This document shows, piece by piece, positions 3,151-17,918 of a stretch of 64,000 bases of DNA; position 1 is the first letter of the stretch, and each line of letters opens with the position of its first letter. The notes under the pieces are model-generated. The model did not search any database. It worked only from the letters and a program-made list of their open reading frames with translations, and was not told the DNA's origin. The position numbers and the translations under genes are program-made. The stretch spans positions 8,200 through 72,199 of the IMG/VR virus record IMGVR_UViG_3300047548_000621; one strand, given 5' to 3'. This DNA is from a virus. Its lineage: Duplodnaviria > Heunggongvirae > Uroviricota > Caudoviricetes.

Positions 3151-3156
3151 ATTAAT

Positions 3157-4812: not shown

Positions 4813-4820
4813 ATCAGTAT

Positions 4821-6302: not shown

Positions 6303-6315
6303 AATTTTATTTAAG

Positions 6316-6407
6316 TGGCGGAGAGTGAGGGATTCGAACCCTCGGAACCAGTTTCCCAGTTCGCCTTCTTAGCAGGAAGATGGTTTAAGCCACTCACCCA
6401 ACTCTCC
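6316..6407 (-). tRNA. tRNA-Ser (GCU), class II
   Basis: Long variable arm. Anticodon loop CUGCUAA, acceptor GGAGAGU/ACUCUCC, CCA. Confidence 0.75.
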
Positions 6408-6413
6408 GTAGTT

Positions 6414-6833
6414 CTATATATTTAAATGCTGTTTAGCATTTTCAACATAACTTTCAATTCTTTCTTTTCCAACATTGTTCTTAGAATGCACTATATATCT
6501 AGGAAACTTCTTTTGATTATTTACGCAATATTCAACTAACCATTTTGCGCAATCATATCCGGTTTTTTCCGGTCCATAATCAAAGGTCTTTATTAAATCA
6601 CCGTCGTTGTATGTATAAGAATCTGCCTGGGCATTCTCCTCTAACATAACTGCATAATGAAAGTCCGCTAAATCGTGGTCAAAACACACAAACTTCGGCA
6701 AACCAAAAAACTCAACGTGTCTGACAAAACCGTCAAAGCTACGAGCTATAAAAATAGAATCATAGCGAGGAAACTCGGCCCACGTTACTTGATCGGGCAT
6801 TCTTTCGTCATCAAGAAATAAAACGTAAGACAT
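6414..6833 (-). CDS. Hypothetical protein
   Basis: The ORF-track N-terminus (to 6923) overlaps tRNA-Ser(UGA). The internal Met MSYVLFLDD at 6831-6833 is taken as the start. Confidence 0.4.
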   Translation of the reverse strand: MSYVLFLDDERMPDQVTWAEFPRYDSIFIARSFDGFVRHVEFFGLPKFVCFDHDLADFHYAVMLEENAQADSYTYNDGDLIKTFDYGPEKTGYDCAKWLVEYCVNNQKKFPRYIVHSKNNVGKERIESYVENAKQHLNI

Positions 6834-6849
6834 TGTTAATCCTAATAGT

Positions 6850-6937
<88 letters not shown>

Positions 6938-6977
6938 ATATTCATATTTATGAGCGTATTACTACTGTAGTAAAAAG

Positions 6978-7052
6978 TGGTGCGCCCGGCAGGACTCGAA
7001 CCCGCAACCTAGCCCTTATGAGGGGCCAGCTCCACCATTGAGCTACAGGCGC
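6978..7052 (-). tRNA. tRNA-Met or Ile2 (CAU)
   Basis: Anticodon loop CUCAUAA, canonical T-arm GGUUCGAGUCC, CCA. Elongator, initiator and lysidine-Ile identities cannot be separated by eye. Confidence 0.7.
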
Positions 7053-7061
7053 ATTATTATT

Positions 7062-7148
7062 TGGTGGGAGTGGATGGATTCGAACCAACTCAGCCTTCCG
7101 ACAACAGATTTACAGTCTGCCCCAGCTCTCCAACTCTGGCGCACTCCC
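7062..7148 (-). tRNA. tRNA-Tyr (GUA), class II
   Basis: Anticodon loop CUGUAAA, long variable arm, acceptor GGGAGUG/CACUCCC, CCA. Confidence 0.7.
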
Positions 7149-7158
7149 AAATTAAACT

Positions 7159-7380
7159 TTACAAAAATTGATGGAGCCAACCATCAGCCAACTTCTGAAC
7201 TTCTTCGTCAGAAGCAAAATACTTATTCATATCGTTAATAGCGTCAAGTGTATCAAGGACATCATCTTCGTCCAACCCTTGATTACGCAAATGATTTAGA
7301 TAATCAGTAAGAGTTTCACAATCACACAGTTCTTGTTCAACATTCTTCTTACCAAACTCGACTTGAATAACTTGGCCCAT
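7159..7380 (-). CDS. Small acidic hypothetical protein
   Basis: 73-aa ORF. Confidence 0.3.
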   Translation of the reverse strand: MGQVIQVEFGKKNVEQELCDCETLTDYLNHLRNQGLDEDDVLDTLDAINDMNKYFASDEEVQKLADGWLHQFL

Positions 7381-7396
7381 AGTTGGCTCCTATGTG

Positions 7397-7627
7397 TTAC
7401 TTGGTTGCAGATTCCGTTGCAGCACCAGATGGAGTATCAGATGCAGTCTTTACGGTACCATCATCATTAAGCTGAACATCAGCAGATGAGGATGCAGCAG
7501 CGGCTTCATCAGCCGGTACATCAACAGTTTCAGTTCCCTTACTGCAAGCAGCAAGAGTAGCAAGGGCCGCAACAGCAGCAATAGTTACAATCTTCTTCAT
7601 ATTTTTTCCTCTTAATAAATGGTCCAT
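7397..7627 (-). CDS. Small lipoprotein
   Basis: Signal peptide with lipobox LAAC (MKKIVTIAAVAALATLAAC), followed by a low-complexity Ala/Ser/Thr-rich tail. Confidence 0.45.
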   Translation of the reverse strand: MDHLLRGKNMKKIVTIAAVAALATLAACSKGTETVDVPADEAAAASSSADVQLNDDGTVKTASDTPSGAATESATK

Positions 7628-7651
7628 TATTGAACCAAACTCTAAATTATT

Positions 7652-7727
7652 GGTGACCCCTACGGGATTCGAACCCGTGATCTTTCCCGTGAAAGGGGAA
7701 TGTCCTAAGCCGCTAGACGAAGGGGCC
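7652..7727 (-). tRNA. tRNA-Glu (UUC)
   Basis: Anticodon stem UUCCC/GGGAA with loop CUUUCAC, T-loop GGUUCGAAUCC, CCA. Confidence 0.8.
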
Positions 7728-7899
7728 GATAAACTTGTTACGCTATTGCTGCAATATAGCTTCGGGACTTCGAAACCCGAACCTGGTCCCTATTGTCGCC
7801 TTATGGGCTATCGTCGTTCTCCGTGCTAGCCTTACACCACATCTACTGTCACCGTTTGCAACCGTAAAATGCAGCAATATTAAAACTTTTTATTGATTT

Positions 7900-8180
7900 T
7901 GGTATGAGCGGCGGGACTCGAACCCGCACGTCCAAAGGACACAAGATTTTCTTACCACTATAGCTTTCGCTACCCATTAGTTTGTGGTCTGGACTATCCC
8001 TTCATCATATCATGACTGACTTAGATGCCTGCCGTCTAGTCTCTACACCTTCCCTTTCGGGCTTGGCTCGGGATCAGCATTTTACAGCCTTCCCCGAATT
8101 TGACAGGTTCTACTCTAGAGATTTCCCTCTAGGCACTCAAATTAATAAGTCTCGGGCGTCTACCATTCCGCCACGCTCAC
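7900..8180 (-). tRNA. tRNA-Leu (UAA) interrupted by a group I intron (exon 1 at 8147-8180, exon 2 at 7900-7950)
   Basis: The two exons join to an 85-nt class II tRNA. Acceptor GUGAGCG/CGCUCAU, D-arm UGGCGGAAUGGUAGACGC, anticodon stem CGAGA/UCUUG with loop CU-U|AAAA, variable arm, T-arm GCGGGUUCGAGUCCCGC, CCA. The split falls between U34 and A35. Confidence 0.75.
7951..8146 (-). ncRNA. Group I intron (tRNA-Leu UAA type, 196 nt, no ORF)
   Basis: Follows a U at the 5' splice site and ends with G before the 3' exon. Carries recognisable group I conserved elements: P-like AAAUUCGGGGAA, Q-like AUCCCGAGCC, R-like GUAGAGACUAGACGG, S-like AAGGGAUAGUCC. Confidence 0.65.
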
Positions 8181-8240
8181 ACATTAAAACTTAACCAACA
8201 ATGTCAAAGAATAGAGTGTGTTTCTCACTCTGTATATCTC

Positions 8241-8269
8241 TTTATACGATATAATAGGATAAATGTCAA
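8241..8269 (-). promoter_or_regulatory. Sigma70 / T4-early-like promoter (minus strand)
   Basis: Minus strand reads TTGACA, 17 nt, TATAAA. Confidence 0.4.
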
Positions 8270-8332
8270 GAAGTTTTTTCAAAAAAGCACACAATTTCAG
8301 AGAACCGAAAGAAATCAAACAAATTGGTATAA

Positions 8333-8409
<77 letters not shown>

Positions 8410-8413
8410 TATA

Positions 8414-8806
8414 TTAGAAGTGAACTACACCACTGTCAATGACAGGATGCTCATCGTCTGTGCGATCTACAATTGTGTAGGTGAATTTGGTTGTTCCAAA
8501 CTCACGGAGCATATCTGAAACACTGTCTAGTGTGAAATCTTTACAAGAGTAAAGATCAAACTTGAAAAAGGATGGCTCACCAGACCAAAAATGAATGCTA
8601 CTGTGACTAGTAGTAATGCCTACCATACCGGTAACACCTTCGTTACCTTCATCATCACAATATACGCAGATAGGATCAATCAATATTTTCATATCAACTG
8701 CTTCAACCAATCGGCGGAACCAATCATTTAGTTGGGGAACATACTCTGGGCCAGGAGCCTCTGCTAGGTATCCTGTAACCAGGACGTGCTTATTAACTTG
8801 AGCCAA
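8414..8806 (-). CDS. speD: S-adenosylmethionine decarboxylase proenzyme (pyruvoyl-dependent, SpeH/SpeD-like)
   Basis: 130 aa. The motif TTSHSSIHFWSGEP...FKFDLYSC matches the SES(H)xSIHTWPE self-cleavage region of bacterial and archaeal AdoMetDC. Confidence 0.6.
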   Translation of the reverse strand: MAQVNKHVLVTGYLAEAPGPEYVPQLNDWFRRLVEAVDMKILIDPICVYCDDEGNEGVTGMVGITTSHSSIHFWSGEPSFFKFDLYSCKDFTLDSVSDMLREFGTTKFTYTIVDRTDDEHPVIDSGVVHF

Positions 8807-8884
8807 CTCATAAAACCTTTCTCATCAATTTTACTGTCAGACAGCGAATAACTATTTATCATTATGTGTGTAGTTTTTAAGAAA

Positions 8885-8959
8885 TGGTAGCGCCGAGGAA
8901 TTCTGCCATCCTGACCTTTCGGGTGTAAACCGAATGCTCTACTTCTGAGCTACGGCGCC
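8885..8959 (-). tRNA. tRNA-Val (UAC)-like with non-canonical T-loop (GGCAGAA) and D-loop lacking GG; possible pseudogene
   Basis: Acceptor GGCGCCG/CGGCGCU, anticodon stem UUCGG/CCGAA with loop UUUACAC, CCA. The T-stem has a 53-61 mismatch and the T-loop has no TΨC. Confidence 0.45.
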
Positions 8960-8971
8960 ATTATTAAAATA

Positions 8972-9049
8972 TGGTCGGGGTAGCAGGATTCGAACCTGCG
9001 ACCTCCTGCTCCCAAAGCAGGCCGTCTAACCAGACTGACGTACACCCCG
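8972..9049 (-). tRNA. tRNA-Pro (UGG)
   Basis: Anticodon stem CCUGC/GCAGG with loop UUUGGGA, T-arm GCAGGUUCGAAUCCUGC, CCA. Confidence 0.8.
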
Positions 9050-9056
9050 ATATTCT

Positions 9057-9131
9057 TGGTGGAGACGGAGGGAATCGAACCCTCAAGTGCGCCTTGCAAA
9101 GGCGCCAGTTTCCCGTTAGCTTACGTCCCCG
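9057..9131 (-). tRNA. tRNA-Ala (UGC)
   Basis: Anticodon stem GCGCC/GGCGC with loop UUUGCAA, T-loop GGUUCGAUUCC, CCA. Confidence 0.7.
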
Positions 9132-9150
9132 TTGAACTATTTATATACTC

Positions 9151-9179
9151 ACTATAACATAGGCAAATTCCTATGTCAA
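9151..9179 (-). promoter_or_regulatory. Sigma70 / T4-early-like promoter (minus strand)
   Basis: Minus strand reads TTGACA, 17 nt, TATAGT. A TATATAAATA (late-promoter-like) sequence sits immediately downstream. Confidence 0.45.
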
Positions 9180-9188
9180 GAAAAAACT

Positions 9189-9266
9189 TGGTGCGCCCGG
9201 CAGGATTCGAACCTGCAACTTGAAGCTTAGAAGGCTCCTGCTCTATCCAGTTGAACTACGAGCGCG
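9189..9266 (-). tRNA. tRNA-Arg (UCU)
   Basis: Anticodon stem GGAGC/GCUUC with loop CUUCUAA, T-arm GCAGGUUCGAAUCCUGC, CCA. Confidence 0.75.
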
Positions 9267-9320
9267 TTATTCTTACTTATACGATAGATTGAAACGAGTG
9301 TCAACCTCTTTTTTCAAGAA

Positions 9321-9396
9321 TGGTGCTCTAGGAGAGAATCGAACTCCCTGTCTCCGGGTTACAAATCCGGCGCATCGCCAGCAATGCTTCTAGAGC
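9321..9396 (-). tRNA. tRNA-Thr (UGU)
   Basis: Acceptor GCUCUAG/CUAGAGC. Anticodon loop UUUGUAA with an A31-C39 mismatch. T-loop GUUCGAUUC, CCA. Confidence 0.65.
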
Positions 9397-9931
9397 GTAA
9401 TATTTTGTTTCTTTGCTTGTATATAGCAGCGTTAGAGACACCTAGCATATTTTCTAGTTCTCCGATTCTGTGCTTGTCAAGCAATGCAATCAAGTCAATA
9501 CTATCCCAATCTACCTTTCGGCTGTTACGCTGGGCACAAGTATGACTGCAAAACTGTTGTGCAACAGGCTTTTGGGCATCGCAGATTGGACAAGCATCAT
9601 ACTCTGACACTTTCTTGAAGTCAGCAAATGCTTCATTAAAACCTTCATACGTTTCCGGAAGTTCTAAGGCTCCTGCGTGAATCTCACTGTGGCAGTTGTG
9701 ACAAACCAAAATACACTTTCTAAGTTCAGTTACGACCTTAGACCATGATTTTGGATTCGCTCTAGTACCACCGAATCCAATGTCTTTTTGACTAGGATCA
9801 ATATGATGAAATGCCAGCGCAGCAGTATGCTTATCATACCCACAGCATTGACATTTCCCGCCCATTGCTTCTACCATCTTATTTTTGGTATTTTCTCTCC
9901 AGCGTTTTACTTTTTCTGATCCATAGCTCAT
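9359..9931 (-). CDS. HNH homing endonuclease
   Basis: 190 aa with HHIDP...CHNCH HNH/zinc motifs. The last ~12 codons overlap the 5' part of tRNA-Thr. Confidence 0.6.
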   Translation of the reverse strand: MSYGSEKVKRWRENTKNKMVEAMGGKCQCCGYDKHTAALAFHHIDPSQKDIGFGGTRANPKSWSKVVTELRKCILVCHNCHSEIHAGALELPETYEGFNEAFADFKKVSEYDACPICDAQKPVAQQFCSHTCAQRNSRKVDWDSIDLIALLDKHRIGELENMLGVSNAAIYKQRNKILRSRSIAGDAPDL

Positions 9932-9991
9932 AATATAACCTCTAACCTGTAATTCTATTTATCATAAAGTTGCAGGTTAGAGGTTTTAATT

Positions 9992-10067
9992 GGCTCCGAC
10001 ACCAGGACTCGAACCTGGAAAAACGCTGATTAACAGTCAGCTGGGTCTACCATTCCCCCATGTCGGA
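9992..10067 (-). tRNA. tRNA-Asn (GUU)
   Basis: Anticodon stem GCUGA/UCAGC with loop CUGUUAA, T-arm CCAGGUUCGAGUCCUGG, CCA. Confidence 0.8.
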
Positions 10068-10093
10068 ATGAACTCTATAAACTATTTAACTTG

Positions 10094-10122
10094 ACTATAG
10101 CAGCCTGACAAATAAATGTCAA
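10094..10122 (-). promoter_or_regulatory. Sigma70 / T4-early-like promoter (minus strand)
   Basis: Minus strand reads TTGACA, 17 nt, TATAGT, just upstream of tRNA-Asn. Confidence 0.45.
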
Positions 10123-10685
10123 GCTGCTATTTTCAAGATCCTACTGTGCTTGGGAACACCTGAAATCAAGTAATCCATCTGATCCGCAAGAATGTTGCGG
10201 TTCTGTAGAATCAAGCTTTCATAGTGGTTCGGCTCGTAGGGAATGTAACGCAATTCCATACCACTTTGCTTTAATGTCTTGCAACCCTTCTTTTGGTTAC
10301 AGTCAAAGCAAGATGTTACGACATTAGTCCATTCGTCCAAACCGCCCAAGAACCTCGGGACAATGTGGTCACGACTCAAATCATACTTACTTGCGAAATG
10401 ATTTCCACAGTAAGCACAGATATGTCTGTCACGAGCAAACAATGTAGGGTTCGTAAGAACTACTTTGTTGTGCTTTTTGAAATCGAAACCGTTACCCCTA
10501 ATAGCAATAATGCTAGGAGTTTCTAGATAGCTACGAGTACCATCGTTCTTGTAACCACCGTTGTATCTAGCAATTACATCACCTAGACTCCAAGCTACCA
10601 GATTTTTTGCGTGATACGAAATTGCTTCGTCGTGGGAGACCCACGTTCTGGGGACACCCGATATGTCTAAGGCTAGAACTGCCAT
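10119..10685 (-). CDS. HNH homing endonuclease
   Basis: 188 aa with the motif YCGN...DHIVP...CFDCNQKKG. Confidence 0.6.
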   Translation of the reverse strand: MAVLALDISGVPRTWVSHDEAISYHAKNLVAWSLGDVIARYNGGYKNDGTRSYLETPSIIAIRGNGFDFKKHNKVVLTNPTLFARDRHICAYCGNHFASKYDLSRDHIVPRFLGGLDEWTNVVTSCFDCNQKKGCKTLKQSGMELRYIPYEPNHYESLILQNRNILADQMDYLISGVPKHSRILKIAA

Positions 10686-10789
10686 AATAAACTCCTGTTA
10701 TTCTTTCTATATTTACTAATCTACAAAGTGACTTCCCTATTGTCTGTTCACTGTACATTTGTTTGACCGAATTGTCAACCAAAATCTTT

Positions 10790-10875
10790 TGGTGCACGGA
10801 AGAGGATTCGAACCTCTACACCATTTCTGATAGTACCCCCTCAAGATACCGCGTCTGCCGTTTCGCCACCCGTGC
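10790..10875 (-). tRNA. tRNA-Leu (GAG), class II
   Basis: Anticodon stem GUAUC/GGUAC with loop UUGAGGG. Long variable arm, T-arm AGAGGUUCGAAUCCUCU, CCA. Confidence 0.65.
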
Positions 10876-11521
10876 GTGAATCCCACTCTTGTATGTCTTT
10901 CATAAGCTCATCAATAGTACAGCTATTTTTCCAAGTCTTTTTGGCGTTAGCTGAATGTAAGACGAACTCGCAATTAGCAGGATGTGATATAATCTTAGGA
11001 TCAATATTGTTAGTAAATCCGTAATGCACTGATATACGATGATCACGGACTACCCCAGTAGGATTAATCTTTTTATGATACATACCGTGTTCTTGTAGAA
11101 GACAGTACCCTTTAACTTTTTCTATACAGGATGATAAGTGGAATGAGCAATCTTCCTTATACATCACCTTGCAAAGTGCTTGCTCATCAGTTATCTTTCT
11201 TTTACCTGTCATGTTCGTGGCCCAAGAACGGATGCTTTCATGAGTATCTTTAGTGAGACCTTTTGCCCAAGCCATCCTCTGTTTAGAATCTTCGGACAAT
11301 GTTGCATAGCGTTCCTTAGCACTTACTCGTTTACCGCTCTCATAAGCGTTCTTTGTGTTAGCACTATTTCTTGCTCTAACAGCAGGGCATTTGTTAGGAA
11401 CAATCTCGCACGAAAGTTTGCCACTTGAGGTAGAGTAGTGTGCAATATTGCCACACCCATAACTACATAACTCATCAGTGGTGATCTTTATTCCTGATTT
11501 AATAGGCATTTGTTTCTCCAT
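10841..11521 (-). CDS. Putative HNH-family or zinc-finger homing endonuclease
   Basis: 226 aa. Cys-rich N-terminus, C-terminal DHRISVHYGF...H motif. The 3' end overlaps tRNA-Leu(GAG). Confidence 0.4.
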   Translation of the reverse strand: MEKQMPIKSGIKITTDELCSYGCGNIAHYSTSSGKLSCEIVPNKCPAVRARNSANTKNAYESGKRVSAKERYATLSEDSKQRMAWAKGLTKDTHESIRSWATNMTGKRKITDEQALCKVMYKEDCSFHLSSCIEKVKGYCLLQEHGMYHKKINPTGVVRDHRISVHYGFTNNIDPKIISHPANCEFVLHSANAKKTWKNSCTIDELMKDIQEWDSRTGGETADAVS

Positions 11522-11569
11522 TGGTATACACGCAAGTATTTATCTTTTGCATACCAATCGGTATTAATT

Positions 11570-11660
11570 TGGTACTCCTGCTCGGATTCGAACCGAGACC
11601 GACCCCTAATCTGGGCTCCGGGATATAAATCCGGCCACTCTACCATTAAGCTACAGGAGT
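11570..11660 (-). tRNA. Class II-like tRNA, anticodon uncertain (best parse loop UUUAUAU with A31-C39 mismatch, possibly Ile-UAU)
   Basis: Perfect 7-bp acceptor ACUCCUG/CAGGAGU, T-arm CUCGGUUCGAAUCCGAG, CCA, and a variable arm of about 20 nt. The anticodon arm is irregular. Confidence 0.4.
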
Positions 11661-11673
11661 ATGAAACTTGCTT

Positions 11674-11747
11674 GGTGCCTCGTGAGGGATTTGAACCCCC
11701 GGCCTTTGCTTTACGAAAGCACTGCACTACCACTGTGCTAACGAGGC
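11674..11747 (-). tRNA. tRNA with uncertain anticodon (best parse CGU, Thr)
   Basis: Acceptor GCCUCGU/ACGAGGC, T-arm GGGGGUUCAAAUCCCUC, CCA. Anticodon stem GUGCU/AGCAA with a 27-43 mismatch and loop UUCGUAA. Confidence 0.4.
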
Positions 11748-12086
11748 TCAGAATGAGTTGTTATTTTTATGCCACTGACCATAAACACAATGTAAAAACT
11801 CGTGCCCTACATATTCCGGTTCATATCTAACTGATGGGTCAATCATATGAATTGTGCAAGTGTCAAACGGATATTTCAACACAGTAAATGCAGCAGTTTT
11901 GCCAGGGAGCTTTTTTTCAGCTACAACCTTACTAAACTCTTGTTCTGTTTTATAAGTTACGATGTTAACTTTCACCGTTTGTCGTTCATACTGTTTTTTA
12001 CCAAACGTATATCCGTCCTTACCTGGAGTAGGACCTTGATTACAACTTACCAATAATAGCAATAATGTTGCACATAATTTTTTCAT
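11748..12086 (-). CDS. Small lipoprotein with HExxH zinc-metallopeptidase motif
   Basis: Signal peptide plus lipobox (LLLLLVSC) and HEFLH near the C-terminus. Confidence 0.45.
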   Translation of the reverse strand: MKKLCATLLLLLVSCNQGPTPGKDGYTFGKKQYERQTVKVNIVTYKTEQEFSKVVAEKKLPGKTAAFTVLKYPFDTCTIHMIDPSVRYEPEYVGHEFLHCVYGQWHKNNNSF

Positions 12087-12294
12087 AGAGAATCTCCCTA
12101 TGATATTTAGTAAATTATAGTGGGCCCGTCACCACAACATAGACGGCATTATGCGGAATTTATCAGCGCCTCCGCTTGTGGATAGCTTGCTATCCTTTGG
12201 GTAAGTTATTGCAGATTACTTTCAGGTTAGCCTTCGCACCGTCTCCAATGTATGCCTACACGGGATTTCATCTTACTAACACCCACTATAAACT

Positions 12295-12378
12295 TGGTGC
12301 CCCGAGAGGGACTTGAACCCCCACGCCTTTCAGCAAAAGATTTTGAGTCTTCCGTGGCTACCATTACACCATCGGGGC
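12295..12378 (-). tRNA. tRNA-Leu (CAA), class II
   Basis: Anticodon stem GAAGA/UCUUU with loop CUCAAAA. Long variable arm, T-arm GGGGGUUCAAGUCCCUC, CCA. Confidence 0.7.
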
Positions 12379-12497
12379 AAGAAACTAGGCCCGGGATATT
12401 TATACTGCATACGGGCGGCGCAGTATCGGTTCAGCCTAGCGCATAGCTTATTGTGCCTTGAGAACACTCCGGTGCACCGCGTTTCTCTTCCGATATT

Positions 12498-12581
12498 TGG
12501 TGCGGGTAGAGGGACTTGAACCCCCACGCGATTAAGCAACAGATTCTAAGTCTGCCGTGGCTACCATTACACCATACCCGC
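12498..12581 (-). tRNA. tRNA-Leu (UAG), class II
   Basis: Anticodon stem GCAGA/UCUGU with loop CUUAGAA, long variable arm, CCA. Close paralog of the Leu(CAA) gene. Confidence 0.7.
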
Positions 12582-12732
12582 ATTTAAAATTATTTACTCG
12601 CCGTGACTCGTATCTCAAATAAAGTCACCGATAGTTCTTTCAACTACTGCTACGGCCTTCGGGTACACTCTCGCTCGGATTGAGCATAGAGCAAGGTCAC
12701 ATACGGCATACCGTACACACACGAGTAAAATT

Positions 12733-12808
12733 TGGTGCCGCCTCGAGGTTTCGATCCCCGTTCTTCGGTGCTTCAAACCGACGCTATCACCAGATCAGCT
12801 AAAGCGGC
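12733..12808 (-). tRNA. tRNA-Phe (GAA)
   Basis: Anticodon stem UCGGU/ACCGA with loop UUGAAGC, T-loop AUCGAAA, CCA. Confidence 0.65.
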
Positions 12809-13360
12809 ATTTAAGTCATTATATTGTTCTTTCTCTATAATGAGAATCTTCTTGTCAGGATGCTGTTCTATTACTGCATCCATCTTAGCTCTATCATTGC
12901 CCCACCATCTGCCCTTTATCTCAACATAAAGATCAAAAGCAGGAAGATAGAAATCAGGAGTGTAGTTCTTTGTTATTCCATCTAGAACATACTTCCAAGA
13001 CTTGCATCTTTCCCAAGCAATGTTATTATCGTTACAGTATAAAGCAAAAGTCCTTTCCCAGGTACCTTGCACTTTCTTACCGCTCACTTCAAACCATTTA
13101 CTCTTGCCACCTGGATTATGCTGTGACATTCGTTCGGACAATCGTTTACGAGCATCCTCGCCCATTACAGTAGGACCGTATTCAGCAATGCGAAGTTTTG
13201 TAGCTTCAGATTTAGTCCTAGTAATTAGGTCGCCGCGATTTTTGGCATTGACCAATGAGTTAAAAGCGAGTCCGTGCTTCTGTTGCAGGCCTCTAAAGCT
13301 CAACCCAGCGTCATAATCTTTCTGTATTTCAGCCCAATCGTAATGTTTCTTGTGTGGCAT
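12773..13360 (-). CDS. PD-(D/E)XK-family nuclease with N-terminal helix-turn-helix (putative homing endonuclease)
   Basis: 195 aa. The motif PDFYLP...DLYVEIKG fits PD...(D/E)xK. The 3' end overlaps tRNA-Phe and the start codon abuts a tRNA 5'-half remnant. Confidence 0.5.
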   Translation of the reverse strand: MPHKKHYDWAEIQKDYDAGLSFRGLQQKHGLAFNSLVNAKNRGDLITRTKSEATKLRIAEYGPTVMGEDARKRLSERMSQHNPGGKSKWFEVSGKKVQGTWERTFALYCNDNNIAWERCKSWKYVLDGITKNYTPDFYLPAFDLYVEIKGRWWGNDRAKMDAVIEQHPDKKILIIEKEQYNDLNAALADLVIASV

Positions 13361-13385
13361 TTGTGTTCTCCGTGATACTATTTAT

Positions 13386-13436
13386 CCCAGATACACAATC
13401 AACTGCTCTACCAACTGAGCTACAGAGGCAAAAACT
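13386..13436 (-). pseudogene. tRNA 5'-half remnant (acceptor plus D-arm only)
   Basis: GCCUCUGUAGCUCAGUUGGUAGAGCAG is a canonical acceptor and D-arm. No matching 3' half (CAGAGGC-N-CCA) is found nearby. Confidence 0.4.
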
Positions 13437-13588
13437 ATTGACTGGCTGCGTCACACCTACGCGATTTAACAGGATAGACTGTCCTGACCAATCTTTAGTT
13501 TAGTAAAATAACAATGTCAAAGAATAGAAAGCATCGCTCTCTATAGTCTTGTTATAGCAAACAATGATAGTGTTGTCAACTATTATTT

Positions 13589-13667
13589 TGGTCACGCCGA
13601 CGAGATTCGAACTCGCATTCTCCGACTTGAAAGGACGAACTCTTATGCCAATTAGAGGACGGCGTGA
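13589..13667 (-). tRNA. tRNA-Glu (UUC)-like, second copy, degenerate
   Basis: Acceptor CACGCCG/CGGCGUG, T-arm GCGAGUUCGAAUCUCGU, CCA. Anticodon loop CUUUCAA with one U-U mismatch in the stem. The D-loop is 12 nt. Confidence 0.4.
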
Positions 13668-13672
13668 TATCT

Positions 13673-13756
13673 TGGTGGGCCGGTGTGGACTTGAACCACG
13701 CCCCGAAGGATGAGTTTTACAGACTCACTGCTAAATCCAATTAGCTTTACCGTCCC
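13673..13756 (-). tRNA. tRNA-Tyr (GUA), class II, second copy
   Basis: Anticodon stem UGAGU/ACUCA with loop CUGUAAA, long variable arm, T-loop GGUUCAAGUCC, CCA. The acceptor has one A-G mismatch. Confidence 0.55.
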
Positions 13757-13763
13757 ATTAACT

Positions 13764-13948
13764 TGGTGAGGGCGACCAGATTCGAACTGGCAGAAGTCGT
13801 TACCAAAGCATTACCAGTGGCTGCCATCAGGTTCAAAGACTGCCGCGAGTCTACAAAAAATACCCCTAGGCACTTGCGAACAAACTCGGGTGTTACCCCA
13901 ATCGTTCCTTACTTTAACGATGCGTATACCTATTTCCGCTACGCCCTC
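13764..13948 (-). ncRNA. tRNA-like RNA with a ~105-nt insertion between the anticodon-stem halves
   Basis: 5' part has acceptor GAGGGCG, D-arm GCGGAAAUAGGUAUACGC and stem UCGUU. 3' part has AACGA, a 5-nt variable loop, T-arm GCCAGUUCGAAUCUGGU, acceptor CGCCCUC, A, CCA. The two parts are separated by about 105 nt that contains a second AACGA. Confidence 0.4.
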
Positions 13949-13957
13949 ATATAATCT

Positions 13958-14033
13958 TGGTGGAGCCTACGGGGATCAAACCCGTGACCTTTTGTCTGCC
14001 AGACAAATGCTCTCTCATCTGAGCTAAAGCCCC
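13958..14033 (-). tRNA. Atypical tRNA-like (Cys-GCA-like anticodon loop UGGCAGA, D-loop without GG, T-loop UUUGAUC)
   Basis: Acceptor GGGGCUU/AGGCUCC with CCA. Anticodon stem UUGUC/GACAA has G at position 33. D and T loops are non-canonical. Confidence 0.35.
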
Positions 14034-14041
14034 AATATCGG

Positions 14042-14124
14042 AGGAGTGTGATGGCATCGAACCATGTACCTTTCGGTACCTACTGATTTCGAATCAGTGC
14101 GGGGAGCCAACCCCAGCACACTCC
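14042..14124 (-). tRNA. tRNA-Ser (CGA), class II
   Basis: Acceptor GGAGUGU/ACACUCC, anticodon stem ACUGA/UCAGU with loop UUCGAAA, variable-arm hairpin GGUACCGAAAGGUAC. The 3' end reads UCC rather than CCA. Confidence 0.6.
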
Positions 14125-14198
14125 AATCTCGCGGGGGAGTTGCACTGTCCCCCTTCCCTCAATCTGCTATTGTGCAACGCAGTAATGAGGAGTATTTC

Positions 14199-14274
14199 TG
14201 GTCGGGAAGACAGGGATCGAACCTGCGACCTCGGCGTCCCGAACGCCGCGCTCTACCACCTGAGCTACTTCCCG
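14199..14274 (-). tRNA. tRNA-Pro (CGG)
   Basis: Anticodon stem CGGCG/CGCCG with loop UUCGGGA, T-arm GCAGGUUCGAUCCCUGU, CCA. Confidence 0.7.
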
Positions 14275-14410
14275 TTGTTATTCTTTAATCTATCAAAAGC
14301 ACGTTTCATCCGCGCTCTTGCTTCTTCTGCTTCTTTTCCTTTGAGGACTCTTACGCCCTCAAAAACACGGTTGCTCGTGTAGTTGCTAAAGTCAGGTAAA
14401 TCAGACTTCA
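14264..14410 (-). CDS. Small ORF (about 48 aa, MKSDLPDFSNYTSNRVFEGVRVLKGKEAEEARARMKRAFDRLKNNNGK)
   Basis: ATG preceded by AAAGGAAAUCAUU. The stop lies inside the tRNA-Pro(CGG) 5' end. The 124-aa ORF in the track looks like an over-extension across two tRNAs. Confidence 0.3.
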
Positions 14411-14427
14411 TAATGATTTCCTTTAAA

Positions 14428-14506
14428 TGGTCGGGATAGCAGGACTCGAACCTGCGACCTCTTGTCCCCCAGACAAGCGCGCTAAACCAGGCTGCGCCAT
14501 ACCCCG
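14428..14506 (-). tRNA. tRNA-Pro (GGG)
   Basis: Acceptor CGGGGUA/UAUCCCG, anticodon stem CUUGU/ACAAG with loop CUGGGGG, T-arm GCAGGUUCGAGUCCUGC, CCA. Confidence 0.7.
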
Positions 14507-14585
14507 TTGAATTGGCCGCCCCCTTTATTTTCCGTCCCCTTGCACTGAATAAACAGTAAAGCACAAGGTGAGAGGGCGATAAGAT

Positions 14586-14681
14586 TGGTGGACTGTGAAG
14601 GATTCGAACCTTCGAGTGGCCGTCGCCAATGAGTACCATACTTAATGGGAATCGAACCCAATCCTCTTCCAGGAACAGTCC
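14586..14681 (-). ncRNA. tRNA-like element of unknown fold (7-bp acceptor plus CCA, two T-arm-like hairpins)
   Basis: Ends GAAGGUUCGAAUCCUUC-ACAGUCC-A-CCA with a matching 5' GGACUGU 96 nt upstream. The interior holds a second UGGGUUCGAUUCCCA hairpin and no recognisable anticodon arm. Confidence 0.3.
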
Positions 14682-14687
14682 AATTAG

Positions 14688-14777
14688 TGGCGGAGTCGGT
14701 GAGATTCGAACTCACGGTACCCTTACGAGTACAACACCTTTCCAGGGTGTCACAATCGGCCACTCTGTCACGACTCC
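14688..14777 (-). tRNA. tRNA-Ser (GGA), class II
   Basis: Acceptor GGAGUCG/CGACUCC, anticodon stem ACACC/GGUGU with loop CUGGAAA, long variable arm, CCA. Confidence 0.7.
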
Positions 14778-14925
14778 AGTATTTGGCGCGACCACTTATT
14801 TTCTATGCCGACTACTACTTTCGGAAGGTAGCTCTTGCATGTGGCCGCATAAGAATGGAAAAGCGGTGACGTTTTTTCGTCACTATTATAGTGGTATCAC
14901 TCGCCGCCATAAACTTGGTGCGCGA

Positions 14926-14990
14926 TGCAGGAGTTGAACCTGCCGCCTCTTCCATGTCAAGGAAGCGTTCTACCGATGAACTAATCGCGC
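14926..14990 (-). tRNA. tRNA-Val (GAC)
   Basis: Acceptor GCGCGAU/AUCGCGC, anticodon stem CUUCC/GGAAG with loop UUGACAU, T-arm GCAGGUUCAACUCCUGC, CCA. Confidence 0.75.
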
Positions 14991-14997
14991 ATTGAAT

Positions 14998-15072
14998 TGG
15001 CTGACTAAGTAGGACTCGAACCTACATATCCTTCATTAACAGTGAAGTTCATTACCATTATGATATTAGCCA
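14998..15072 (-). tRNA. tRNA-Asn (GUU), second, AT-rich copy
   Basis: Anticodon stem CUUCA/UGAAG with loop CUGUUAA, T-arm GUAGGUUCGAGUCCUAC, CCA. The acceptor starts with U. Confidence 0.6.
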
Positions 15073-15130
15073 ATGAAACTGTGTGCGTTTTTAAAAAGGG
15101 ACGCACGGCCCGAGCAGCCGAAGCTGTAAC

Positions 15131-15208
15131 TGGGGTGGGTGAAGGGATTCGAACCCTCGACATTCGGCACCACAAGCCGACGCTCTAACCAACTGAGCTA
15201 CACTCACC
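15131..15208 (-). tRNA. tRNA-His (GUG) with G-1
   Basis: Anticodon stem UCGGC/GCCGA with loop UUGUGGU. Extra 5' G opposite discriminator C73, which is the bacterial His identity feature. CCA. Confidence 0.7.
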
Positions 15209-15214
15209 ATGAAT

Positions 15215-15290
15215 TGGAGGACCCGCCCGGGCTCGAACCGGGGACCTAGAGATTAAAAGTCTCCCACTCTACCTACTGAGTTACGGGTCC
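15215..15290 (-). tRNA. tRNA-Lys (UUU), second copy
   Basis: Acceptor GGACCCG/CGGGUCC, anticodon loop CUUUUAA, T-arm CCCGGUUCGAGCCCGGG, CCA. Confidence 0.7.
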
Positions 15291-15340
15291 GTAAAACTCT
15301 CAGCTTCGGCTGTAGACCGAACTTAATCGGTCTTAAAAAC

Positions 15341-15417
15341 TGGTGCAACCAGAAGGATTCGAACCTTCAACCTTCGGTTTCGTAGACCGATGCTCTATCC
15401 AGTTGAGCCATGGCTGC
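15341..15417 (-). tRNA. tRNA-Arg (ACG)
   Basis: Anticodon stem UCGGU/ACCGA with loop CUACGAA, T-arm GAAGGUUCGAAUCCUUC, CCA. Confidence 0.75.
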
Positions 15418-15428
15418 GTGAAATTGTT

Positions 15429-16085
15429 TTATAATGATTGTAGTCTATCTATAATAGAATTACGTTCTTCAATTGTGTTTTCTTTTAGGTCTAGAGGATA
15501 GAAAAACGCCATCGGAAGTTCAAATGCCGGCACTGACTCTAGTCCACCCTTAATTGTTTGGTTGTGATAAGTTTTAGCATTTAAACTAAAAACACTCTTG
15601 TTTTCAGCTTCATATTGCTCTATCAAGACAGGTGTACTTGAAGGGAAACTTTCATTGGGATCAGATACCTCACCCGGAACTTCATAAAAATTAATTAAAC
15701 TGTTGTTTGCGCCATCAAGCAAAAAAGTTAATGTGTAGTCAGAAGTGGTTGGGTGCAGATGTTTGTGTATATTTAAAGTAACGTTATTCAACCCAAATAA
15801 CATAGGCAAAAAGTTATATTTCTTACATAATTCAGAAATATTGGTCCTGTTAATTACTTCACTATAAAGTAATTGATCTATATCTCTCACTTCATCCGCA
15901 AGAGCATTGAAACTCATATAAGTTTGTGTACCAGTAACCGTCTGATATAATCCAGATGCCCAGCAATACGAATTCTGTACTGAAGGATCTAACTCATAGA
16001 CCAGAGAGAAGGCTTCTAGAGTGGAAGTGACAATTTCATTGTACACTGAATCTGACAGAATTACGGGAACATAATTTTTTGACAC
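15429..16085 (-). CDS. Hypothetical protein
   Basis: 218-aa ORF inside the tRNA array. No recognisable motif. Confidence 0.4.
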   Translation of the reverse strand: MSKNYVPVILSDSVYNEIVTSTLEAFSLVYELDPSVQNSYCWASGLYQTVTGTQTYMSFNALADEVRDIDQLLYSEVINRTNISELCKKYNFLPMLFGLNNVTLNIHKHLHPTTSDYTLTFLLDGANNSLINFYEVPGEVSDPNESFPSSTPVLIEQYEAENKSVFSLNAKTYHNQTIKGGLESVPAFELPMAFFYPLDLKENTIEERNSIIDRLQSL

Positions 16086-16138
16086 CAGGAAACTTTTCCT
16101 TTTTTGTTATTTAGTCCCGAAATTATTCGTAATTAATA

Positions 16139-16215
16139 TGGTAGACCCTGAGAGATTCGAACTCCCGACCTTCTGTTTCGAAGACAGACATTCTATCCAG
16201 CTGAACTAAGGGTCC
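16139..16215 (-). tRNA. tRNA-Arg (UCG)
   Basis: Anticodon stem UCUGU/ACAGA with loop CUUCGAA, T-arm GGGAGUUCGAAUCUCUC, CCA. Confidence 0.75.
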
Positions 16216-16226
16216 AAAATATTATA

Positions 16227-16300
16227 TGGTGCTCCCAGGAGGTACCGCCCCTCCGGCTCATCATTACCAATGATGTGTATTGCTTTTATACTATGGGAGC
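16227..16300 (-). tRNA. Atypical tRNA-Thr (GGU)-like with non-canonical T-loop (GGCGGUA) and D-loop (AAAAGCA)
   Basis: Perfect acceptor GCUCCCA/UGGGAGC with CCA. Anticodon stem CAUCA/UGAUG with loop UUGGUAA. T-stem GGAGG/CCUCC is perfect but the loop has no TΨC, and the D-loop has no GG. Confidence 0.4.
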
Positions 16301-16331
16301 CGACATCATATTTAGTATGCTAATTCCGGTG

Positions 16332-16928
16332 TTAATTTAAAGGAAGTCCTCTTGATGCTCTGCCATTGCCCTTATTACGACCTTTCCAAGTCGGCGTAAT
16401 ACTATGACAATTAGGACAAACTAATCTAAGGTTGGCGAATTCGTTATTTCCCGCGTTGCCGTCAATATGATCTAATTCCAACGACAATTTTGCGCCGCGC
16501 CATTCCGATATGCCACATTCAAAGCAGTTGCTTCCGTACTCACGAATCAACGCAGTTTTGATAGTCGTTCGTTCGGTTAGGTTTCCTTCATATAATCGTT
16601 TTTTAGTGTCCTCTCTAGTAGGAATATGCTGGCAATCTGCACTACAATATTTTTTTACTAGGTGCTTAGAAGAGGTGTGTTTTTTTCCGCAGCCTGCACA
16701 TTCCCATTCTACTTTGGTAGCTCTATTTTTATTAGAATGGGTAGCGGCGCAAGTGTGGTTACAGAATTTTTTGTGCCTATCAACATATGATAGTGTTTTG
16801 TTGCATTCCGCACAAGAACTAGGAGAACTGTCATAAAGTTCTACTCGTTGCAGTTTTTTCTTTTCTAAGGTAGCTCTGGCTTTTTTCATACCAAGCGCGC
16901 CTGCTTCTGCTTTTGTTAGTTTTCGCAT
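16332..16928 (-). CDS. HNH homing endonuclease
   Basis: 198 aa. LELDHIDGN...LRLVCPNCH HNH motif, several CxxC pairs. Confidence 0.6.
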   Translation of the reverse strand: MRKLTKAEAGALGMKKARATLEKKKLQRVELYDSSPSSCAECNKTLSYVDRHKKFCNHTCAATHSNKNRATKVEWECAGCGKKHTSSKHLVKKYCSADCQHIPTREDTKKRLYEGNLTERTTIKTALIREYGSNCFECGISEWRGAKLSLELDHIDGNAGNNEFANLRLVCPNCHSITPTWKGRNKGNGRASRGLPLN

Positions 16929-16993
16929 ATAATACTCTCCACAATGTATTTATGCTCTAGGTTCAAAACCAGCTAAAAGCAGCATTATAAAGT

Positions 16994-17067
16994 TGGATGC
17001 CCCTCTAGGACTCGAACCTAGGTTGACGGATTCAAAGTCCGCTCTCTTACCACTAGAGGAAGGGGCA
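16994..17067 (-). tRNA. tRNA-Gln (UUG)
   Basis: U1-A72 acceptor (UGCCCCU/AGGGGCA), anticodon stem GCGGA/UCCGU with loop CUUUGAA, T-arm CUAGGUUCGAGUCCUAG, CCA. Confidence 0.65.
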
Positions 17068-17085
17068 ATGTCAACTTGTAGACAC

Positions 17086-17114
17086 ATTATATATGCGATT
17101 GCATAAAATGTCAA
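17086..17114 (-). promoter_or_regulatory. Sigma70 / T4-early-like promoter, near consensus (minus strand)
   Basis: Minus strand reads TTGACA, 17 nt, TATAAT, about 20 nt upstream of tRNA-Gln(UUG). Confidence 0.55.
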
Positions 17115-17120
17115 ATAAAA

Positions 17121-17196
17121 TGGATGCCCGAGATGGGGTCGAACCACCAACCTCCTGGTTCAGAGCCAGGCGATCTGCCAATTGATCTATCGGGCA
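17121..17196 (-). tRNA. tRNA-Gln (CUG)
   Basis: U1-A72 acceptor (UGCCCGA/UCGGGCA), anticodon stem CCUGG/CCAGG with loop CUCUGAA, T-loop GGUUCGACCCC, CCA. Confidence 0.7.
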
Positions 17197-17918
17197 GCAT
17201 ACCATAAATTGTTATGTGTTATATAATCTAGCAATTGAACATCTGGATCAACATATTTTTGCACCTTCTGAAGGTATTCAGGATCCAGTAGCTTTTCTTT
17301 AAGAATCTCATAAACAAAACGTTTTGATTCACTTCCTTCATCATATCTATGATAGTTATCATTGATGATAAGGTTATTGTCATTGCGTAAAGTGCGTATG
17401 AAGGAACACAGTTCGTCTTCTAAACTATCGTCACATTTAAAAAATATACATTTATTAATGTTATAATGAAAAATCACATCAAGCTGCCTATTAGAATGCG
17501 TATCCAATCGCCCTAATTCAAATAAAAACTTAATGAATCTTTCGTTAGTGAATAGTTCTGTGCAAAAATCTAAATCATACCCAGACATATATTGGGCAAT
17601 ACCTGCTACCCAACGTTCAACAGGATCACGAAGAATTATAATATATCTTCTTCTAAGGCCAAGCTTCCTTAATTCTTTTCTCGTGAAACATAGATTTTCT
17701 TCAAATAATTTTGAAACCCAGCAATGAGCATTCTTTAATATAGGTAAATACGCATAGTGAATTGAACCTATTTTAGCTGAATATATGTTCCCGCCGATTG
17801 GAGGATAATACTTCGGTGCAGTTTTCTGTATTGGGATATTAGGTTTAATATTAAACAACATATGTTTATTTATTAGTAAAGCATTCGTTACTAAAGAATA
17901 CTCAAGGTGCCGATCCAA
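17187..17918 (-). CDS. Sulfotransferase-family-like protein
   Basis: 243 aa. RDPVERWVAG resembles the sulfotransferase RDP..R..S region. The true start may be the internal Met (MLFNIKP). Confidence 0.35.
   Translation of the reverse strand: MDRHLEYSLVTNALLINKHMLFNIKPNIPIQKTAPKYYPPIGGNIYSAKIGSIHYAYLPILKNAHCWVSKLFEENLCFTRKELRKLGLRRRYIIILRDPVERWVAGIAQYMSGYDLDFCTELFTNERFIKFLFELGRLDTHSNRQLDVIFHYNINKCIFFKCDDSLEDELCSFIRTLRNDNNLIINDNYHRYDEGSESKRFVYEILKEKLLDPEYLQKVQKYVDPDVQLLDYITHNNLWYAAR

Follow-up and report, generated by a model that had tools for sequence, protein, structure and literature searches.

Nuclease genes paired with variant tRNA genes in the array of an uncultured jumbo phage: probable homing cassettes that carry a spare tRNA

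It is proposed here that four nuclease genes in the tRNA array of an uncultured jumbo phage belong to free-standing homing cassettes, each specific for one isoacceptor and each consisting of a nuclease and a spare tRNA. The array occupies positions 2992-17196 on the minus strand of a 64,000-nucleotide stretch of DNA, called the window below (positions 8,200 to 72,199 of IMG/VR record IMGVR_UViG_3300047548_000621, a virus of the Caudoviricetes), in which ARAGORN and Rfam together place at least 38 tRNA genes with open reading frames (ORFs) interspersed. The genes concerned, all on the minus strand, are HNH1 (9359-9931), ORF3 (10841-11521), a PD-(D/E)XK nuclease gene (12773-13360) and HNH5 (16332-16928), for which we put the probability of the cassette reading at about 0.7; a fifth, HNH2 (10119-10685), is a different case. 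An original prediction, made from the letters of this sequence, had proposed that all five were homing-endonuclease genes (HEGs) that had invaded tRNA genes, with gene conversion. This is supported for four of the genes and not for HNH2. The prediction was thus largely right in its interpretation, with two corrections, namely that HNH2 is fixed and that the tRNA duplicates which it also attributed to HEGs are old, with no visible link to the nucleases. It did not contain the point that the downstream tRNAs appear to be replacement alleles borne by the cassettes.

The array was compared with those of 22 close relatives from IMG/VR (contigs of up to 360 kb, labelled with L-numbers), which were retrieved with the S-adenosylmethionine (AdoMet) decarboxylase gene as synteny anchor; the non-nuclease ORF at 15429-16085, used as an anchor, retrieved none. 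Across these 22 loci the order of the tRNA genes is constant and the ORFs between them are variable. Searches of GenBank phages by megablast (positions 9000-17500) and tblastn (a 604-residue window protein) gave no match, and the phage is one without a close cultured relative, from an uncultured jumbo-phage lineage. ARAGORN finds 34 tRNAs in the array by default and recovers a split tRNA-Leu(UAA) in its intron-aware mode, while Rfam adds tRNA-Val(UAC) (8885-8959) and tRNA-Thr(GGU) (16227-16300), in both of which the T loop is non-canonical. In 15 non-redundant loci, the stop codons of ORFs crowd against the next tRNA gene, 13 overlapping it and about 45 lying within 0-13 nucleotides (nt) of it. 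In the same loci the median identity of tRNA genes is 0.70 where an ORF precedes them, compared with 0.77 where they are tightly packed (Mann-Whitney p=2e-5, for data points that are not independent). The anatomy of the cassettes, their presence in some relatives and absence from others, the tie between nuclease family and tRNA, the displaced tRNA halves and the structural conservation of the embedded tRNAs can all be read directly from these and wider comparisons, which are described below.

The PD-(D/E)XK gene and its tRNA-Phe

The gene at 12773-13360 (minus strand) encodes a predicted homing endonuclease with an N-terminal domain resembling a helix-turn-helix (HTH), as the original prediction had said. 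The Pfam profile Phage_endo_I matches it with 33.2 bits against a cut-off of 29.1, and the T7 endonuclease I structure (PDB 1m0d) with E=1.9e-7 in an alignment that runs through TPDF...VE(T/I)KG. The motif TPDF...VEIKG is intact in the window, and E102, D136, E147 and K149 are invariant in five homologues. By profile and catalytic residues, then, the protein is assigned to the T7 endonuclease I-like PD-(D/E)XK nucleases. Over its last 36 nt the gene overlaps the 5' part of a variant tRNA-Phe(GAA) (12733-12808, minus strand), so that the stop codon is U33-G34-A35 of the anticodon loop. This tRNA gene is complete, has an unusual D arm and T loop, and scores 53.6 bits; it is 100% identical to the allele of L007 and about 63% identical to canonical alleles. 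In L009 nothing but a promoter spacer of 66 nt separates Glu from Phe at the site of the nuclease gene, and in other relatives it holds different ORFs.

Upstream of the gene lies an orphan 5' half of a tRNA-Phe(GAA), 34 nt long (13396-13429, minus strand), which comprises nt 1-34: the acceptor strand, the D arm, the 5' strand of the anticodon stem, and U33-G34. That such a half exists, without a 3' partner in the window, had been predicted correctly, and a search of the window for the partner (CAGAGGC) found none; its placement at 13386-13436, abutting the start codon, did not stand, since it ends 35 nt upstream of the PD-(D/E)XK ATG. The five best matches to the half are all 5' halves of Phe-GAA genes (28-30 of 34 nt), and candidate origins as a remnant of a Lys, Thr, Asn or Asp gene were dropped on that account. 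The half occupies the position of the Phe gene of the relatives, downstream of a conserved Glu-UUC and a promoter-like block. On this comparison it is taken to be the displaced 5' half of the canonical resident tRNA-Phe. A promoter-like GATAAATA motif (13379-13386, minus strand) stands 10 nt past the junction with the half and 26 nt before the ATG, and is kept in L111, L112 and L117.

The association of this nuclease with tRNA-Phe extends well beyond the window. Among 67 non-redundant homologous ORFs from IMG/VR and metagenomes (32-88% identity), tRNA-Phe(GAA) is found at the stop codon in 41; 39 of the ORFs end inside a tRNA gene, always Phe-GAA, and this takes the pattern far beyond chance at the level of the family. 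About 10 more have Phe-GAA directly upstream. The upstream neighbours of the family represent nearly every isotype. The usual overlap is 22 nt, with the coding tail G-E-L-V-W-stop. Outside phages the family is essentially absent: 185,579 species genomes gave one match, on a 425-kb contig of a metagenome-assembled genome that is probably phage, and there is therefore no evidence of invaded host chromosomal tRNA-Phe genes.

The homologues also indicate how the cassette came to its place. L111 (66% identity) and L112 (62%) have the same order as the window, namely an orphan Phe half, TGT..GATAAATA..AGGAGAACA..ATG, the ORF and a complete variant Phe. In L111 the variant tRNA is followed, after 6 nt, by a resident variable loop and T arm and then by CCTGGGC and ACCA, and this acceptor strand is exactly complementary to the GCCCAGG of the orphan. 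Both displaced halves of the resident Phe gene also surround the ORF and its variant Phe in L139, L144 and L149, and partly in L135. Since both halves flank the cassette in L111, L139, L144 and L149, it sits inside the resident tRNA-Phe, from which nt 35 to about 43 have been lost. L117 (87% identity) has the identical junction, with an eroded orphan and a different upstream tRNA, and the scar therefore travels with the cassette. Comparison of 28 distinct embedded Phe genes shows compensatory changes in 19 of 20 pairs, a cloverleaf that is kept and a GAA anticodon that is invariant, by which they are judged to be real tRNA genes under structural selection.

A separate observation concerns L149, in which the orphan 5' half upstream of the cassette (1204-1255) has a D arm of the variant type (TAGCTGATGTGGTCATAGC) rather than the canonical one. 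This suggests that a cassette there re-invaded a tRNA-Phe borne by an earlier cassette, with an arms race between nuclease and immunity as a possible setting.

HNH and HNH-like genes and their tRNA partners

The three ORFs that had been predicted to encode HNH proteins all match HNH families of PHROGs (down to 9e-39) and have intact catalytic motifs in their translations (FHHID...NCHSEIH in HNH1, SRDHIVP...N...CNQKK in HNH2 and LDHIDG...NLRLVCPNCHS in HNH5). They can be assigned on these grounds to the HNH (beta-beta-alpha-Me) endonuclease superfamily. Alleles lacking the nuclease gene were sought in the related arrays, as had been suggested, and were found at the HNH1, ORF3 and HNH5 sites, with spacers of 4-9 nt; sporadic presence with intact empty sites, which is what a homing gene should show, is thus seen at all three. 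The correct prediction that three nuclease genes end within the downstream tRNA refers to the PD-(D/E)XK gene, HNH1 and ORF3.

HNH1 (minus strand) matches PHROG 35854 with E=9e-39 and the Pfam HNH profile weakly, below cut-off. It is present in only L011, L017 and L018 of the 22 relatives, and in the empty alleles the spacer between Asn-GUU and Thr-UGU is 5-9 nt. The last 38 nt of the gene are the 5' part of a variant tRNA-Thr(UGU) (9321-9396, minus strand), and its stop codon is U36-A37-A38 of the anticodon loop. This tRNA has A8 and an unusual D arm and scores 51.5 bits (the tRNA gathering score is 29). It is 93% identical to the HNH1-linked allele of L018 and about 60% identical to canonical alleles, differing over its whole length from those of HEG-less genomes. 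Homologues of HNH1 keep to the neighbourhood of Asn-GUU, Thr-UGU and Arg-UCU.

ORF3 (minus strand), which probably starts at its second ATG (11509), is the probable fifth nuclease of the original prediction. It has an N-terminal zinc-ribbon domain followed by a nuclease-like domain that Pfam does not detect, with the pattern RDH...HPANC...N..K, probably of HNH/HNN type. Pfam, NCBIfam and PDB sequences gave no match. The family has at least 67 metagenomic proteins in which the C-terminal pattern is invariant, with an N-x8-N-x2-K spacing identical to that of HNH2, and an AlphaFold model (pLDDT, the predicted local distance difference test, 88) has weak structural matches that are nearly all HNH domains. 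From motif spacing and modelled fold, ORF3 is probably an HNH-like nuclease, and the prediction stands to that extent. The end of the gene coincides over 35 nt with the 5' part of a variant tRNA-Leu(GAG) (10790-10875, minus strand), the stop codon being U33-G34-A35 of the anticodon loop; at 41.7 bits this tRNA is among the lowest-scoring of the array against the tRNA model, and its best identity to the Leu-GAG of any close relative is 0.70. The site, between Ile-UAU and Leu-GAG, is empty in most relatives (spacer 4-8 nt), and in L005 and L006 it is occupied by an unrelated ORF of 217 residues.

The overlap with Leu-GAG recurs in full-length homologues of ORF3 (47-57% identity) from three further array contexts, and in L024 and L029 a gene of this type lies between displaced Leu halves whose acceptor strands are complementary. 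When ORFs are collected by the nuclease domain (60 non-redundant), 55 have a tRNA gene within 1.2 kb and 28 terminate in one, 16 on the same strand and 12 in antisense. The antisense endings, into Gly-UCC or Cys-GCA, are found in L028 (3001-3828), L054, L063, L065, L067, L068 and L100-L104, and the C-terminal tails of these proteins are translated antisense T arms (for example ...TGIEPATNSLEG).

HNH5 (minus strand; Pfam HNH 4.5e-5, PHROGs 1e-24) stops 31 nt before an odd tRNA-Thr(GGU) (16227-16300, minus strand), for which the best identity among the close relatives is 0.63. Its site is empty in L003, L005, L006, L010, L012 and L021, where the spacer between Gln-UUG and Thr is 7-8 nt, and L002 has a different ORF of 208 residues there. 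Two relatives of HNH5 were found in IMG/VR. In L268 an 87% identical homologue has the same leader and the same odd Thr-GGU downstream, and an orphan 5' half of a canonical Thr-GGU stands upstream. The T loops of tRNA-Val(UAC) and of this tRNA-Thr(GGU) read GGATGGCAGAATTCC and GGAGGGGCGGTACCTCC, respectively, and the two genes score about 48-49 bits with Rfam; such loops might give resistance to nucleases, because SegB-type enzymes recognise the canonical T-psi-C box (PMC2330249).

The pairing of one family with one tRNA is thus found across unrelated arrays for the PD-(D/E)XK nuclease and Phe-GAA, the ORF3 type and Leu-GAG, and HNH5 and the odd Thr-GGU. Nuclease and tRNA allele appear, from sequence comparison, to travel together into many array contexts, as mobility with co-conversion would have it. 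Domains have been shuffled between families: L007 has the ORF3 N-terminus joined to an HNH domain of the HNH5 type, and L011 has the HTH of the PD-(D/E)XK ORF joined to an ORF3-type nuclease domain. An internal contrast to the nuclease cassettes is the ORF at 15429-16085 (minus strand), which has no recognisable family or nuclease motif and is inserted between Arg-UCG and Arg-ACG, where the spacer of the relatives is 8 nt, because the tRNA downstream of it is near-canonical (0.94).

HNH2 (minus strand; Pfam HNH_5, 5e-14) lies between Leu-GAG and Asn-GUU and does not overlap a tRNA, the gap being 51 nt. It is found at the same site in 22 of 22 close relatives, with 73-88% identity, so that the sporadic presence and empty sites of a homing gene are lacking. 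Its catalytic residues are intact, as are those of HNH1, HNH5 and the PD-(D/E)XK protein, for all of which the original prediction had named their loss as a possible refutation. The ratio of non-synonymous to synonymous substitution rates (dN/dS) is about 0.11 for HNH2, compared with 0.07 for the adjoining AdoMet decarboxylase, at a dS of about 1.3. Its constant place and low dN/dS mark HNH2 as a fixed gene and not a sporadic invader; it is best described as a vertically inherited HNH gene, apparently either domesticated or a long-fixed endonuclease.

There are also signals that may govern expression of the four sporadic genes. The start codons of HNH1, ORF3, the PD-(D/E)XK ORF and HNH5 are each preceded, at 22-27 nt, by the motif (G/C)ATAAATA, and GATAAATA has five copies on the minus strand of the window, four of them in the array, and none on the other strand. 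The leader of HNH1 can form a hairpin (9937-9985, minus strand; -23.3 kcal/mol, z=-6.5) with the late-promoter-like GAUAAAUA in its loop and a GAGG Shine-Dalgarno sequence in its 3' arm, and the arms are kept in L011 and L017. The ORF3 leader has a similar hairpin (11518-11560, minus strand; -14.9 kcal/mol, z=-4.2), again with GAUAAAUA in the loop, and the leaders of HNH5 and HNH2 gave no significant hairpin. In phage T4, intron and seg/mob endonuclease genes have a late promoter within a hairpin that occludes the ribosome-binding site (RBS), and endonuclease synthesis is thereby confined to late transcripts. The leaders of HNH1 and ORF3 resemble that arrangement, since the loop of each stable hairpin holds a TATAAATA-like motif and its 3' arm the Shine-Dalgarno sequence, and by analogy may restrict synthesis in the same way. 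The regulation of the T4 genes has been reviewed (PMC2988022).

More generally, (T/G)ATAAATA has 11 sites on the coding strand against 1, often a few tens of nt upstream of ORF starts (minus-strand sites at 8860, 9145, 9963, 11544, 12404, 13386, 25244, 26291, 28448, 37737 and 59781), and is a candidate T4-late-like promoter element. A sigma-70-like element, CTTTGACAT(T/A)GT, recurs before several tRNA groups.

The cassette model and its rivals

We envisage that a cassette comprises a promoter-like (G/C/T)ATAAATA, sometimes an RBS-occluding hairpin, the nuclease ORF and, directly downstream, a complete diverged copy of one tRNA (Thr-UGU, Leu-GAG, Phe-GAA or Thr-GGU), whose 5' part often supplies the last 3-16 codons and the stop of the nuclease. 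During co-infection the nuclease would make its cut within or close to the anticodon arm of the canonical cognate tRNA allele, and the cassette of the donor genome, nuclease and spare tRNA together, would be copied in during repair. Between related phages, flanking homology would allow a clean swap of the resident tRNA, as may have happened at the HNH1, ORF3 and HNH5 sites of the window. Where homology is confined to the tRNA itself, the cassette would land in the resident gene and split it into an upstream 5' half (nt 1 to about 34) and a downstream 3' fragment (from about nt 44); the Phe half at 13396-13429 would be the relic of such a landing. The spare tRNA, presumably uncleavable, would maintain the supply of the isoacceptor. 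Overlap of ORF and tRNA would mean that nuclease gene and immune allele are inherited only together, and the displaced target halves could serve as portable homology arms. In all this the cleavage site, the resistance of the variant tRNAs, the function of the promoter and homing itself are what we infer from the arrangement of the genes.

Several points weigh against the model. The relatives are distant (dS about 1-1.3), so that the pattern of presence and absence spans a long evolutionary time, and no recent HEG-plus/HEG-minus pair turned up in which co-conversion tracts could be mapped. Variant alleles also occur without a nuclease: L007 has such Phe and Thr alleles and no PD-(D/E)XK gene, and the odd Ala-UGC of the window is identical to an allele that is overlapped by a HEG in L011. 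Both cases would fit either loss of the nuclease or alleles older than the nuclease. Several variants deviate at tertiary positions that are otherwise conserved (position 8, T loop), which leaves room for doubt that they work as tRNAs. The HNH1 family does not keep strictly to one side of Thr-UGU, and the promoter role of ATAAATA is assumed by analogy.

Among the other explanations, that of a tRNA-Phe split by a nuclease-encoding group I intron, made up of the orphan half, the PD-(D/E)XK ORF and what lies downstream, draws on the break at 34/35, the classic site of tRNA introns, on the genuine group I intron in tRNA-Leu(UAA) at 7900-8180, and on the PD-(D/E)XK and HNH enzymes encoded by introns of bacterial tRNA genes (PMC13011429). 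It was rejected and may be regarded as effectively refuted. An Rfam scan of 2000-28000 with E up to 1 found no group I core besides that in tRNA-Leu(UAA), whose intron has no ORF; the window has no 3' exon bearing a complementary acceptor strand; the tRNA-Phe downstream is whole, its own 5' half supplying the pairing; and in L111 and the similar loci the resident 3' fragment follows the complete variant tRNA and lacks nt 35-43. It is also conceivable that the tRNAs diverged in order to escape host defences that target tRNAs, such as anticodon nucleases, and that the link to nuclease genes is hitch-hiking or coincidence. Phage tRNAs are indeed known tools of counter-defence (PMC13096335), and the variant alleles of L007 and the Ala-UGC of the window have no adjoining nuclease gene. 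The divergence, however, falls mainly on the D arm, acceptor stem and T arm and leaves unchanged the anticodon loop, which is the usual target of defence; it arises in part from the need for an open frame, in-frame TAG codons of the canonical D arm having been removed; and a canonical tRNA follows the non-nuclease insert, and the association with nucleases holds at the level of families. We therefore consider escape from host defences quite improbable as the main cause.

That the nucleases are not selfish and benefit the phage, through degradation of host DNA, recombination and repair, or a SegB-like amplification of tRNA genes against tRNA-cleaving defences, would agree with the fixation of HNH2 in all relatives under purifying selection, with the dN/dS of about 0.09 for copies of HNH1, and with the finding that SegB amplifies tRNA and anti-defence loci (PMC13096335). 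As an account of the other four genes it is improbable: they are missing from most close relatives, with the empty sites intact, and their homologues change array context, keep their tRNA partner and leave displaced target halves, which is the signature of insertion. Benefit and homing do not, however, exclude each other. The overlap of ORF and tRNA, finally, could be a functionless by-product of packing, in which an ORF without a stop of its own reads on to the first in-frame stop in an A/U-rich D or anticodon loop. The stops do fall where they are most easily formed (U8-A9-G10, the D loop, U33 followed by GA), most ORFs of the arrays stop 0-13 nt before a tRNA, and the 12 of 28 ORF3-type overlaps with opposite-strand tRNAs imply that coupling at the level of RNA is not required. 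Conversely, overlap and tail peptide (GELVW-stop) are kept across 32-88% protein identity, which implies long-term inheritance of the fused arrangement, and the genetic inseparability of nuclease and tRNA allele is a plausible selected benefit. A functionless overlap is thus possible, if on the unlikely side, and it bears on the meaning of the overlap only, not on the cassette model.

Three known systems invite comparison with the cassettes. SegB of T4, a free-standing nuclease encoded in a tRNA cluster, cleaves inside the tRNA genes of phages without it, so that the tRNA region is inherited preferentially, with co-conversion (PMC2330249). Its association with tRNA genes is statistically widespread in phages, and its target is the generic T-psi-C box, without isotype preference (PMC13096335). 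The genes described here are likewise free-standing and inside a phage tRNA cluster. In contrast to SegB, a GIY-YIG enzyme, they have HNH, HNH-like and PD-(D/E)XK folds, and none of the five ORFs matches the GIY-YIG family in Pfam, PHROGs or NCBIfam; each nuclease family keeps to one isoacceptor, brings a replacement tRNA and usually ends inside it; and displaced halves of the resident gene are left behind. Group I introns of bacterial tRNA genes encode PD-(D/E)XK homing endonucleases in tRNA-fMet and HNH ones in tRNA-Leu(UAA) (PMC13011429). With these the cassettes share a target in the anticodon loop (about 34/35), the nuclease superfamilies and a position between the halves of the target gene. 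They differ in having no ribozyme core or splicing; a second complete tRNA restores function, and about 9 nt (35-43) are lost. Integrase-borne elements such as prophages and islands insert in tRNA genes, which they make whole again by means of a duplicated 3' segment. The cassettes resemble these in their tRNA target, in the restoration of function by sequence that the element brings and in the partial tRNA copy at the edge, but involve no integrase or att recombination, double-strand-break repair being presumed, and carry a whole tRNA within about 0.7-0.9 kb.

Neighbouring features and wider meaning

The duplicated Asn, Lys, Tyr and Glu genes of the array had been predicted to be products of HEG activity. 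They proved to be old divergent copies (58-74% mutual identity) without a link to nuclease genes, and the Asn and Glu copies are conserved in position in the relatives. The second 'Tyr' is probably a degenerate tRNA-Tyr(GUA)-like sequence at 13678-13754 (minus strand), with 19.1 bits against a 29-bit threshold and one acceptor mismatch. The split tRNA-Leu(UAA) (7900-8180, minus strand) holds an ORF-less group I intron of 196 nt at position 34/35 (Rfam 65.7 bits). The gene is uninterrupted in nearly all close relatives, and the intron is therefore an insertion polymorphism. Similar split Leu-UAA genes, unannotated there, occur in a 735-kb phage (LR756501.1, L109; 77% identity) and in Agrobacterium phage Atu_ph07 (L110; 73%); no earlier account of phage tRNA-Leu introns was found in the searchable literature, which was incompletely covered. 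In the spacer between Leu-UAA and Glu-UUC (7728-7899, minus strand) an inverted repeat, TATTGCTGCA...TGCAGCAATA, encloses about 130 nt and may be a structured RNA.

Two further tRNA-like sequences lie on the minus strand of the array. The first (13764-13948, 185 nt) has a perfect 7-bp acceptor stem, a D arm, a T arm and CCA, with about 105 extra nt between an anticodon-stem-like hairpin and the T arm, and is called by ARAGORN as a tRNA with a 107-nt 'intron'. With z = -0.87 the fold as a whole lacks significance, and the relatives gave no convincing homologue. The second, found between Ser-GGA and Pro-GGG (14583-14678), is a 96-nt element of the form GGACTGT...ACAGTCC-ACCA in which two motifs resemble T arms. 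At this site relatives have a tRNA-like core inside a long TGCAGTTTAG...CTAAACTGCA stem (L010 3731-3916, L003 1712-1839, L017 348-511), and L003 and L010 have a comparable TGCA-flanked element without CCA after Leu-CAA. Outside the main array, a tRNA with the CUA anticodon of an amber suppressor (27276-27350, minus strand; labelled 'Pyl' by ARAGORN) may point to reassignment or suppression of a stop codon in the phage.

The small ORF at 11748-12086 (minus strand, 112 residues), with a lipoprotein-like signal (LVSC) and an HExxH motif (HEFLH), stops exactly at base 1 of tRNA-Thr(CGU). Because its homologues in L019 and L021 are at other inter-tRNA sites, it appears to be mobile although it is not a nuclease gene. 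Two adjoining radical-SAM/B12-binding enzymes are encoded within the region of the array (3283-6302, minus strand). Other genes of the window, besides very large ORFs, encode a ribonucleotide reductase, radical-SAM enzymes, NAMPT (21885-23258, minus strand) and a TonB-dependent receptor with Plug and beta-barrel domains (28964-31297, minus strand).

A gene that is useful to its carrier is difficult to invade without an intron, and the cassettes would represent an isoacceptor-specific solution, in which a complete replacement tRNA is brought along. No account of nuclease-plus-spare-tRNA cassettes was found in the searchable literature, again with incomplete coverage. We lean, by a little more than even odds, towards the wider view that they form an intron-like class of mobile element, in which several unrelated nuclease families (T7 endonuclease I-like PD-(D/E)XK, classical HNH and the Pfam-invisible 'HPANC' HNH-like type) each home to the anticodon arm of one isoacceptor. 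Such elements would carry a recoded, cleavage-immune spare tRNA in place of splicing, would use the target halves as homology arms for jumps between unrelated arrays, and would be a main driver of array mosaicism and non-canonical tRNAs in huge phages. The ORF3 type would add a large nuclease family that is invisible to Pfam, and the numerous tRNA alleles that nature supplies in pairs, one presumably cut and the other uncut, would be a source from which recognition rules might be drawn. For annotation there is a warning, in that pipelines which bar overlap between coding sequences and tRNA genes truncate or drop genes of this kind. For the phages themselves, the cassettes would help to explain the mixture of canonical and odd alleles in huge-phage tRNA arrays, the existence of phage tRNAs that defy 'universal' rules, and the failure of standard tRNA finders to detect some of them.

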